Shown here piece after piece: positions 2,240 through 4,041 of a DNA stretch of 64,000 nt; position 1 is the stretch's first letter; every line of letters begins with the position of its first letter. This stretch comes from a phage, in sequence record PZ445514.1. One strand, written 5' to 3'. Below the pieces are notes generated by a model. That model was given only the letters and a program-made list of their open reading frames with translations. It made no database searches and had not been told where the DNA came from. The position numbers and the translations under genes are program-made.

Positions 2240-2437
2240 CTATTTTTTATTAAACCAGTGGTTGATCTGGCCTTTTGTCAGGGCGCAACGATTAAGCTGT
2301 TGCCGGGTATAGCTCTGACCGCGACGGAATTTATAAAGGCCTTGCCCGTTGTTGATGGTTACGTCCGCCTGGCAAACCATTTGATCGGTGACGGCCTGGC
2401 GAGTGTTGCGACGTACTTTAATTCCGTAGGCGTTCAT
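2240..2437 (-). CDS. hypothetical small basic protein
   Basis: 65-aa ORF with the same GAGGATAAAAT-ATG context as the neighbouring gene. Confidence 0.5.
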   Translation of the reverse strand: MNAYGIKVRRNTRQAVTDQMVCQADVTINNGQGLYKFRRGQSYTRQQLNRCALTKGQINHWFNKK

Positions 2438-2524
2438 GATTTTTATCCTCTCTGTTAATTAGTGTGGTGTTGTTCACCTTGCGAGGATAAGAATAACAGA
2501 ACTATCCGAGCTGTCAACCATTGG

Positions 2525-2695
2525 TTAGAATTTTTTTGGTAAGAATTCTCCAGCCGCCGCCCCTGCCAGGTTAACCATCATTTTTTCGTACTCTTCTTTA
2601 TGTTCCAACGCTCCCGCCATAGCCTTTTCAACCAGGGCGATAGCCTCAGCGTCATTAATAGCTACATTTTCCAGGGGGATCATATTACCTTTCAT
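2525..2695 (-). CDS. hypothetical small protein (56 aa)
   Basis: Short ORF not in ORF track; strong GAGGAGG 7 nt upstream of ATG at 2695. Confidence 0.4.
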   Translation of the reverse strand: MKGNMIPLENVAINDAEAIALVEKAMAGALEHKEEYEKMMVNLAGAAAGEFLPKKF

Positions 2696-2699
2696 TTTT

Positions 2700-3650
2700 G
2701 TACCTCCTCTTCAATTGTTACCTATCCTATAGCATAGGCCCACCAGGTTTGCAAGCCTTCATTCTCTCCTACCTGGTCAGTTAGGTCCTGCCAGGCTGGC
2801 CCCGCCAGGTTGCAGCGGTCAGCGCATCAGGTTAGAAAAATTTTTTTGAAAAGTGTTGACAGCGGCCCCGCCAGGTGGCACAATATACCTATCGAAAGGA
2901 CGGCAGGCACCGGTGACGGGGAGACAACCACCGGGGATGGGCGCTGCATAAAATGAGAACGGTTATCATTATCGTCTAAAAATTTATGCAAAAACTTCTT
3001 GCTTTCTTTGTCCTGTGTGTTACTATAATAACAAGCCGGGGCAGTAGGGGCCGGGAGACAATCACCGGGGGTGCCCGTTATTCTGCAAACGAGAATGATT
3101 ATCATTCAAAATTCTAAATGAGAACTTTTCTCATTTCATAAATTTAGTTAGCATGCTAATTACCTACCGTGACAATTCTATATAAAATAATACCTCCTAA
3201 AATATTTCCATATACAAATTTTAAAAATCCATTTCCGAAAACGAAAAATCGCTTTCGTTCCCAAAAATTTTAGACCTGGTGCTGGACCAATTTCAAGAAA
3301 ATCCGATTCAGAAAACGAAAAACAGATCGAGTACTGAGAAGTTTATCGAGAAAAATTTTCAGAAAATTCAATCTTTGAAACGAAAAACAGATCGAGTACC
3401 TAGAAAGCTGCACCGCAATTTCAAGATGGTGGTTAGATTATTACCATAAAAGGTCAAGGGTGAGTGGGAAAGTTCTGGTAGAGGGGTGTGAGCATACGCG
3501 GAAAATCTAGAATGGTAGTCCGGAATATGGTGCAAACGATAGGATGAGTGGTTCAGCTCGTCGTGCCTACTCTGAAAAAATCCATTTTAGTTTTCGATCC
3601 ATTTTCTGATTTTCTAACAATTTTAAAATATCTGGCCGGGTGAAATATCA
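2700..3650. repeat. ~1 kb non-coding region with several families of short direct repeats and hairpins
   Basis: No RBS-supported ORF; repeats GAAAACGAAAAACAGATCGAGTAC (x2-3), AAATCCATTTT (x4), GGCCCCGCCAGGT (x2) and two related hairpin-containing ~60-bp units near 2900 and 3040. Confidence 0.55.
2856..2884 (+). promoter_or_regulatory. candidate plus-strand promoter (TTGACA, 17 nt, TG-n-CACAAT) reading into the non-coding repeat region
   Basis: Consensus -35 with extended-minus-10-like TG; no protein gene downstream on the plus strand. Confidence 0.3.
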
Positions 3651-3651
3651 A

Positions 3652-3682
3652 AAGGAGGAAATCCATTTTAGAAATCCTCCTT
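3652..3682 (-). terminator. candidate stem-loop terminator
   Basis: 8-bp inverted repeat AAGGAGGA/TCCTCCTT with T-rich tract after it on the minus strand; downstream of gene ending at 3712. Confidence 0.35.
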
Positions 3683-3711
3683 ATACTTGATATGTCAGAA
3701 ATTTTCAAGTA

Positions 3712-4041
3712 TCAGCTATCTTTGTTTTTAGGTTTATACATGCGGAGAGGTATAGTCTTTGTAACATTCCATTTACTCAACCCTTCCCAGCTCCAGTTGT
3801 GGGCATGGTATCCGGTTATGCATGCACTGCTGGAGTGATCGTAAGCATAAGAGAACGCTAAGCGCACCAGGTGAGGCCAGTCTTTCCACGGTTGTGGTCC
3901 GTAAGCTTTTCTCCAACACCGACACAAACTAAATGTCTCAAGAATAGGCAGGATAACAAATCCATACACCGCCACCAGAATAGCCAGCGCAATGATTGTC
4001 AGGAATACATACCCTGCAGTTGAAACGATGATCTCTGTCAT
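3712..4041 (-). CDS. hypothetical membrane protein
   Basis: 109-aa ORF with N-terminal transmembrane helices; stop/start overlap with next gene. Confidence 0.55.
   Translation of the reverse strand: MTEIIVSTAGYVFLTIIALAILVAVYGFVILPILETFSLCRCWRKAYGPQPWKDWPHLVRLAFSYAYDHSSSACITGYHAHNWSWEGLSKWNVTKTIPLRMYKPKNKDS

Follow-up and report, generated by a model that had tools for sequence, protein, structure and literature searches.

What purpose is served by about 1 kb of apparently non-coding DNA in a virulent phage is the question raised by positions 2696-3711 of a 64,000-nucleotide (nt) stretch of sequence record PZ445514.1 (hereafter the window). The source phage is a Vequintavirus, an rV5-like myophage of Escherichia coli, and window positions 2450-3800 match Escherichia phage rV5_ev147 (LR597647.1, 115,777-117,127) at 100% identity and ~120 other records at 80-93%. 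An earlier note made from the sequence of the window had placed a repeat-rich gap without a convincing open reading frame (ORF) at 2700-3650 and suggested a replication origin, an iteron cluster or a structured non-coding RNA (ncRNA). The gap is real and its true limits are slightly wider, from the start codon of the gene at 2525-2695 to the stop codon of the gene at 3712-4041, both of which, like all genes flanking the gap, lie on the minus strand. A gap of ~1 kb with a layout alike in all is also found in Certrevirus, Seunavirus, Mydovirus, a Serratia phage and Phapecoctavirus. From sequence comparison we conclude that 2696-3711 is a conserved non-coding control region comprising two plus-strand cassettes, each a promoter followed by a structured RNA (2856-2955 and 2999-3084), putative operators for the iron-responsive regulator Fur and an array of direct repeats in unusually AT-rich DNA. 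Its parts are of known kinds, namely small RNA genes, Fur operators and iterons.

The region is almost certainly non-coding. No frame is conserved across it, and the one substantial exception to the claim of no convincing ORF is a 92-amino acid frame on the minus strand (2827-3105), annotated as 'phage protein' in several relatives. Were a small protein encoded here, one would expect what is seen over the first 63 codons, which are open in 11/11 Vequintavirus sequences, and in the match to PHROG 14993 (E 3e-43). That match covers residues 1-65 only, however, and we give this alternative very little credence. No Shine-Dalgarno sequence precedes the ORF and its ATG falls within Fur box 2. Its C-terminal third is rewritten, or ends at different places in different isolates, because of a 1-nt indel at ~2917 in the loop of RNA unit 1 (GGGG in the window and rV5_ev147, GGGGG in ten relatives) and of a run of T at 2839-2845 whose length ranges from 7 to 16 nt in relatives; these differences may be genuine polymorphism or sequencing error in homopolymers. 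Variable sites within the ORF show no third-position excess (13/10/8) and no Pfam domain was found in it. In other genera the DNA is conserved save for a 2-nt indel, and there the frame is closed after ~25 codons; among homologous loci the frame assigned to PHROG 14993 is not kept, being shifted or broken. The V5 type record leaves the gap without annotation, and the other small ORFs of the gap had no family match and are annotated inconsistently among records. On these patterns we consider the 92-amino acid ORF spurious.

Conservation of the region was measured as mean pairwise identity among 11 Vequintavirus sequences (Table 1) and is highest over 2856-3140, where it exceeds that of a neighbouring gene. 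Outside the genus BLAST aligns only ~3051-3138, at 80-89% identity, with matches in Certrevirus, Seunavirus, Mydovirus, Phapecoctavirus and a Serratia phage.

Both cassettes begin with a promoter of the host sigma-70 type. P1, directed against the flanking genes, is invariant in 11 relatives except at 2-3 spacer positions, and the counterparts of P2 in other genera are near consensus (TTGCAA-17-TATATT or TTGATC-16-TATTAT). A third candidate, P3, was read by eye from the sequence and alignment; at the equivalent place GAP31 has a clear TTGACA-18-GAAAAT, and four rightward promoter-like sites were seen in its homologous gap. The number of promoter sites alone is not significant, nine having been found with 5.2 expected.

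The RNA units that follow P1 and P2 are diverged paralogues. Unit 1 is predicted to fold with an outer stem GCAG..CUGC and an inner stem CCGGUG:CACCGG closing a loop that contains GAGACAAC. The core of unit 2 is nearly invariant in Vequintavirinae and Phapecoctavirus and is the sole part conserved in distant genera. Written as DNA, the core of the motif, GAGACAAWCACC-N5-TGCCYGYYATTC, is almost invariant, and in the RNA a stem of variable sequence presents the conserved loop GAGACAAWCA, followed by a conserved 3′ segment UGCCYGYYAUUC. Pairing in the outer helix was counted by column in a structure-blind MAFFT alignment of 23 distinct sequences, these counts replacing a test of the best complementary 8-mer that did not discriminate. 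The outer helix of unit 2 was 86% paired; one position varies between A:U (10), G:C (8) and G:U (1), and two others are frequently G:U (16 and 6), which on the opposite strand would give A-C mismatches. Slid controls were 33-52% paired, compared with 75.6%.

A covariance model built from relatives (R1) matched units 1 and 2 only in the 64 kb, both on the plus strand. Unit 2 scored 72.6 bits (3023-3091) and unit 1, which was outside the training set, 24.3 bits (2887-2955, E 4e-4). A search of 845 kb of unrelated viral contigs gave a single match, itself a relative, and bacterial genomes gave none. In Rfam no family matched the window at its gathering score, with chance-level hits only (E up to 10) in 2400-3900, and none matched eight related loci or the metagenomic copies of the motif. 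Taken together these patterns suggest that the plus-strand RNAs are probably real.

Members of this family, which is absent from Rfam, were seen beside promoters in metagenomic phage contigs as well as in Vequintavirinae and Phapecoctavirus. In rV5_ev147 a third copy is found ~9 kb away (LR597647.1 ~107,214-107,281; L183:7715-7782, minus strand; 23 bits, E 1e-4), with CTTGCA-17-TATACT in front of it and, directly behind, a second promoter (TTGACA..TAGCAT) and then a gene in the same orientation; an annotated plus-strand 'hypothetical protein' overlies this copy at ~107.2 kb. Mydovirus-type contigs have a second copy ~7 kb away, and metagenomic contig L170 (Ga0315903_10028264) holds five in 6 kb, ending at 633, 1258, 2085, 3447 and 4612. 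The metagenomic copies, found also in L168, L169, L172 and L177, each stand behind a consensus sigma-70 promoter, mostly TTGACA-17-TATAAT; an intrinsic terminator follows most of them and Fur-like boxes are absent. No clear terminator of units 1 and 2 was found in the source phage.

Other genera carry a different, highly conserved RNA-like element (ACGCCACCCCACGGCGAAAAGGCGGGGCTAAC...GGAAGGTGGATCGCCGGTAG) in place of unit 1, ~150-200 nt upstream of the core in L005-L011 (e.g. L007:1318-1405). This element, which Rfam lacks and the window does not contain, could form a pseudoknot and includes a hairpin with covariation. Three candidate identities for the RNAs were rejected. A tRNA or pseudo-tRNA had been prompted by a 'tRNA-Met' in OY978796.1, where, as here, ARAGORN and the Rfam tRNA model found none; these negatives rest mainly on Rfam, ARAGORN having given no tRNA in any sequence submitted. 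The tRNA-Met, tRNA-Ile and tRNA-Lys annotated in that record (L004:1420-1573, 878-953) were not reproduced and their coordinates may be misplaced. A pseudo-ToxI, the type III antitoxin mimic of phiTE, was set aside because the pseudo-ToxI locus of phiTE is at 106.7 kb and its homologue of our region at ~39.6 kb, a homologue in which no ToxI match to the 36-nt repeats was found. Mimicry of a host RNA was likewise dismissed: among 185,579 bacterial genomes the core pattern had just two occurrences, attributable to chance, and no model match.

What the earlier note had missed is that the AT-rich palindromes behind the RNA units match Fur-box operators. Counting matches to the 19-bp consensus GATAATGATAATCATTATC, we found 19-mers of at least 14/19 in the 64 kb only at 2955-2973 and 3085-3109. 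Three sites of at least 15/19 were seen in the window against 0.35 expected; one of them, 3091-3109, scores 15/19, and a 16/19 match such as that at 2955-2973 was expected only 0.04-0.05 times. Minus-strand positions 3109-3085 (TTGAATGATAATCATTCTCGTTTGC) have 16 consecutive bases in common with the Fur site of the E. coli fhuA promoter, a site verified by gel shift (PMC2189734). Overlapping sites offset by 3 or 6 bp are typical of Fur site clusters (PMC2189734), and such offset pairs occur in the window (3085/3091) and in five other genera (1526/1532). In a 24-kb E. coli ent-fep cluster taken as a positive control, scores of at least 15/19 occurred solely at the fepD-entS and fepB-entC promoters, whose footprinted sites score 15-16/19, with 14/19 for the verified fhuA site and 13/19 for fepA-fes; the phage boxes thus score as well as verified E. 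coli sites. A TGAGAA half-site is common to the fepB-entC operator and the phage boxes, and the four best matches in the window to a position weight matrix trained on these E. coli sites all fall in 2955-3109, the top one in box 2 and the second and third in box 1.

The boxes lie at a constant distance 3′ of the RNA core in every genus examined, and also after the second Mydovirus copy. We considered that the palindromes might instead form RNA hairpins; a DNA operator is favoured because the half-sites are conserved in sequence yet often not mutually complementary. Judged on consensus, clustering and conservation, the boxes are likely to bind Fur. The right half of a third, weak palindrome is degenerate in most relatives. 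A further recurrence is that of TGCAAACGA, which follows both unit 2 (3085-3093) and the closing helix of domain 3 (3531-3539), as TATTCTGCAAACGA / TATGGTGCAAACGA. Two unrelated contigs (L144 and L148) carry arrays of the same palindrome in contexts that are uninformative. The literature searched contained nothing linking Vequintavirus with Fur boxes, an origin or ncRNAs. If our reading is right, high-quality Fur operators conserved in the non-coding DNA of a virulent phage would be new as far as our searches reach. The RNA family also appears to be new, as does the constant pairing of it with Fur boxes in virulent phages.

To the right of the boxes the DNA becomes the most AT-rich of the window, 3081-3380 being the AT maximum at 100-, 200- and 300-nt scales, with A5/T5 runs at four times the average density of the window. 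Starts of the three copies of repeat D1 are separated by 74 and 65 bp. The GATCGAGTAC core closes the second and third copies (3325-3334, 3390-3399); the first is degenerate and makes up an inverted repeat. Three-copy, same-strand arrays occur in eight relatives of other genera, built on GATCGAG[AT]AC or GATCGAGACC with a spacing of 63-78 bp, and two further lineages have other repeat families at the array position. This pattern is as would be expected of sites co-evolving with a DNA-binding protein, and the GATCGAGTAC-core repeats are most simply read as binding sites of such a protein encoded by the phage. Three regularly spaced direct repeats of one motif beside an AT-rich region (3081-3380) also constitute the arrangement of iterons. 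No plus-strand RNA structure signal was found in 3141-3400.

Beyond the array a third structured domain was predicted on the plus strand. Its 28 pairs are paired in 95.4% of alignment cells and eight have changed on both sides in a compensatory manner; its covariation score was reached by 1/500 shuffles, and slid controls were 30-48% paired. The signal is strand-specific (-12.9 kcal/mol on the plus strand vs -2.5 on the minus, the latter without compensatory changes). The structure was derived from the same 10-sequence alignment that tests it, and the evidence for it is good but not final. The transcript of domain 3 would be G-rich, and the domain might represent a further cassette, the third, that has diverged and whose box has decayed.

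All the landmarks reported earlier were recovered at the positions given. At least four direct-repeat families had been claimed and were located as D1-D4, together with a fifth (D5); the two related hairpin units are those of D4, the AT-rich tracts coincide with the AT maximum, and the plus-strand TTGACA at 2856 belongs to P1. The proposed iterons are real, the three-copy array being kept across genera, and the proposal of a structured ncRNA is supported by the host-type promoters directed into the region in the source phage and in a distant genus, the covarying outer helix, the compensatory changes of domain 3 and the covariance search in homologous phages that had been recommended.

These elements can be joined in a single model, which we put forward tentatively. 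Rightward transcription, running against the leftward genes on both sides, would cross 2696-3711. Tandem P1 and P2 would each start a short structured RNA of a phage-restricted family, and transcription continuing past the Fur boxes, or arising from the weaker P3, would enter the most AT-rich DNA of the window and go on into the structured, G-rich domain 3 (3400-3542). Iron-loaded Fur bound in vivo would limit rightward read-through, the next promoter or both, whether as a roadblock, by control of that promoter, or in the two ways combined, and the level of transcription into the repeat and AT-rich element would then follow the iron status of the host. That element would be the best candidate for a transcription-activated origin, served by the T7-like DNA polymerase and primase-helicase of the phage. 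For the repeat and AT-rich part in itself, origin function is possible and still doubtful.

Several observations weigh against this reading. The architecture of promoters, repeats and AT-richest DNA fits the origin suggested earlier; skew gives no support, and the neighbouring genes are unannotated small proteins, none of them identified as an initiator. GC skew had been proposed as a check. At third codon positions (GC3) it shows a step over the region whose sign is contrary to that of a G-rich leading strand model; the step is probably a gene-class effect and we discarded it as an origin test. The rV5 paper had also sought an origin by skew and found none, skew changing only at switches in the direction of transcription. 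A second, larger gene-poor region (LR597647.1 ~102,430-105,950; L183:2930-6450), the 'non-coding' box of the rV5 paper, lies between convergent units and contains a few repeats; the genome ends or an origin might be located there. The RNA motif is not origin-specific, since copies occur away from any repeat array (the ~107.2 kb copy of rV5_ev147 and the metagenomic five). Folding energies of units 1 and 2 are unremarkable against shuffles (z -0.8 to -1.4) and the covariation tests comprise 10-23 related sequences; as Rfam has no family for them and the energies are unexceptional, the case for the units rests on conservation, covariation and promoter context. Fur usually represses from a box lying over the -35/-10 elements or the start site. 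The phage boxes are off the -35/-10 of the plus-strand promoters: relative to the starts of P1 and P2 they are at ~+50 to +82, and relative to the plus-strand promoter that comes next at ~-60 to -100. The sole promoter overlapped by a box is a weak, non-conserved minus-strand site (3139-3111).

An explanation that we take seriously, while stopping short of calling it probable, is that the locus encodes ncRNAs and nothing else. Its RNAs would act in trans, in host takeover, as anti-defence decoys or as regulators, without starting replication; Fur boxes would tune their expression as for RyhB and PrrF1/PrrF2, and the AT-rich repeats would be transcribed or serve as regulator sites. The stand-alone promoter-RNA-terminator units of the same family elsewhere, the third copy 9 kb away in the same phage, the three plus-strand structured domains, the four rightward sites of the GAP31 gap and the want of skew support for an origin would all suit it. 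However, no target or partner was identified, the complement of the RNA loop being found only at the locus itself and at two one-mismatch sites, and the units have no clear terminator in the source phage. The invariant 10-nt GATCGAG[AT]AC, with its regular spacing and variable flanks, resembles a DNA-binding site rather than an RNA, and lies where the structure signal is missing (3141-3400). It is improbable that the region is simply a boundary between two leftward modules, consisting of the terminator of the replication-gene module, the promoter of the small-gene module and rightward promoters that block read-through by convergent transcription. The terminator (3652-3682) and leftward promoter (2754-2726) are present and the two sides do differ: genes to the right are tightly packed or overlapping and include the T7-like DNA polymerase and primase-helicase 8-13 kb off, those to the left are small and loosely packed with gaps, and leftward genes have a coding-strand GC3 skew of -0.117 on the left side and +0.025 on the right (LR597647.1 105,956-136,384). 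A boundary would leave unexplained the near-invariance of 285 bp, the covarying RNA family, the Fur boxes and the cross-genus three-copy array, and far less DNA would suffice. Least credible, with the small protein, is a packaging (pac) site or genome terminus made of repeats. Repeat-rich, bent AT-rich DNA is like that of some pac/cos regions and some assemblies start near or within the region, but the terminase genes are far away, and KPP-1, a related phage, has its 514-bp direct terminal repeat (116,316-116,829; PMC9862379) ~8.3 kb from its copy of the element (125,124-125,199), on which ground we rejected a packaging end.

Table 1 Features of the non-coding region and its edges (window positions)
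Feature	Position	Strand	Details
Neighbouring gene			86.4% identity
Conserved segment	2856-3140		96.8% identity, 263/286 columns invariant
Segment	3211-3410		92.9% identity
Segment	3411-3577		74.4% identity
Segment	3578-3690		93.0% identity
Promoter-like site of leftward gene 2525-2695	2726-2754	minus	TTGCAA (2754-2749), 17-nt spacer, TATAGG (2731-2726)
D2 GC-rich motif, GGCCCCGCCAGGTKGCA-like	2737, 2784, 2798, 2864 (2737-2880)		five copies, four at the positions given
P1	2856-2884	+	TTGACA-17-CACAAT with upstream TG; against flanking genes
RNA unit 1	2887-2955	+	diverged paralogue of unit 2
D4 GC-rich hairpin units	2906-2939, 3040-3073		76% identical to each other
D3 palindromes	2951, 3087, 3116		AAATGAGAAC..TCATT; three copies
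Fur-box operator 1 (putative)	2955-2973		minus-strand sequence GATAATGATAACCGTTCTC; 16/19 consensus
P2	2999-3029	+	TTGCTT (2999-3004), TG-extended TACTAT (3021-3026) overlapping TATAAT (3024-3029)
RNA unit 2	3034-3084	+	core GAGACAATCACC-N5-TGCCCGTTATTC
AT-rich segment	3081-3380		29% GC vs 44%
Fur-box operator 2 (putative)	3085-3109		two overlapping 19-mers, 6-bp offset (3085-3103, 3091-3109), 14-15/19
Third palindrome	3116-3135		AAATGAGAACTTTTCTCATT; weak Fur-like box; overlaps minus-strand promoter-like site 3139-3111
P3 (candidate)	3160-3188	+	TTACCT (3160-3165)-17-TAAAAT (3183-3188)
D1 direct repeats	3215, 3289, 3354 (3215-3405)	+	three copies of 52 nt; 65-74-bp units
RNA domain 3 (predicted)	3400-3542	+	RNAalifold structure in fast-evolving segment (74% identical)
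Domain 3 helices	3400-3402:3540-3542; 3409-3414:3529-3534; 3429-3433:3443-3447; 3478-3480:3526-3528	+	
Domain 3 helices, further	3484-3487:3518-3521; 3493-3495:3512-3514; 3499-3502:3506-3509	+	
Conserved right block	3578-3650		AAATCCATTTTAG at 3578 and 3659 (D5); AAATATC at 3626, 3643
Intrinsic terminator of upstream leftward operon	3652-3682	minus	AAGGAGGA / TCCTCCTT stem, U-rich tail

Set against established knowledge of transcription-activated origins (the T7 primary origin with 1.1A/1.1B and its AT-rich region, T4 oriF/oriG, and ColE1 RNA II), the locus shares tandem promoters directed into an AT-rich segment and a G-rich structured transcript, and the source phage, like T7, has a T7-like DNA polymerase and primase-helicase. 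Unlike those origins it has sigma-70 host-type promoters, core repeats of 65-74 bp in the AT-rich part and Fur boxes in between, and its RNA motif occurs at non-origin places too. Iteron origins, from what is established for lambda ori, P4 ori/crr, SPP1 oriL/oriR and plasmid iterons, resemble it in having direct copies on the same strand (three here) beside the AT-richest DNA, with a motif that varies by lineage while the architecture stays. They differ in a spacing of ~22 bp, as opposed to 63-78 bp with GATC in each core here, and no initiator gene overlapping or adjoining the locus repeats was identified.

Among Fur-controlled small RNA genes the established examples are E. coli RyhB and the tandem PrrF1/PrrF2 of Pseudomonas. 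Like these, the locus pairs tandem paralogous small-RNA units with high-quality Fur boxes. Unlike them, its RNAs resemble neither RyhB nor PrrF in sequence or structure (no Rfam match), the carrier is a virulent phage, and the boxes are downstream of the RNA (~+50 to +80) instead of over the promoter. The ryhB Fur site is among those cited in PMC2189734. A resemblance may also be seen to the put RNAs of HK022, cis-acting antiterminators just downstream of early promoters: the RNA motif would likewise be a promoter-proximal two-helix RNA of ~50-70 nt with several copies per genome, some of its copies having a terminator and then genes behind them; there is no sequence relation, and unlike HK022 the locus has no plus-strand genes downstream.

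At the left edge the leftward gene at 2525-2695 has a GAGGAGG ribosome binding site and its ATG at 2695. Copies of D2 (GGCCCCGCCAGGTKGCA) lie in or beside the divergent promoters, the two best being unique in 64 kb (0.17 expected), and are likely promoter-spacer or operator modules. Positions 2735-2786 are missing in 3-4 relatives (slur16, JEP1, L163 and, in part, Gotham), a deletion that costs them one copy of the GC-rich motif together with the leftward gene's promoter-like site. In several genera a small plus-strand gene of 60-88 amino acids occupies the left end of the gap, in the direction of the RNAs (L007:1069-1260, L008:1083-1265, L009:1073-1258, L010:1028-1294); rV5-like phages are without it. 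At the right edge, AAATATC repeats recur at the same place in other genera, and an A-to-C change in the terminator of relatives keeps pairing only as a minus-strand G:U. Sixteen 'Campylobacter phage' records (MG0656xx) share ~93% identity with this E. coli phage over the region, and their host labels are probably wrong.

The rV5-like phages and their relatives (Vequintavirinae and Phapecoctavirus) have a broad host range and are often proposed for therapy and biocontrol, and elsewhere this locus is unannotated or filled with spurious ORFs. Annotators should note that the 'phage protein' placed here is probably not real, and neither is the PHROG derived from it. If our reading is true, the locus would provide a phage RNA family not described before, a case of Fur operators kept in a virulent phage and a concrete candidate origin. 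The broadest proposition is that in an entire subfamily of virulent enterobacterial phages a non-coding module, in which a new promoter-proximal RNA family is joined at fixed spacing to true Fur operators, ties the phage to the iron regulon of the host, with Fur gating read-through; we regard it as unlikely. Were it to hold, phage replication or host takeover would be responsive to the iron status of the host, the gated target being either an iteron and AT-rich origin or a further ncRNA.

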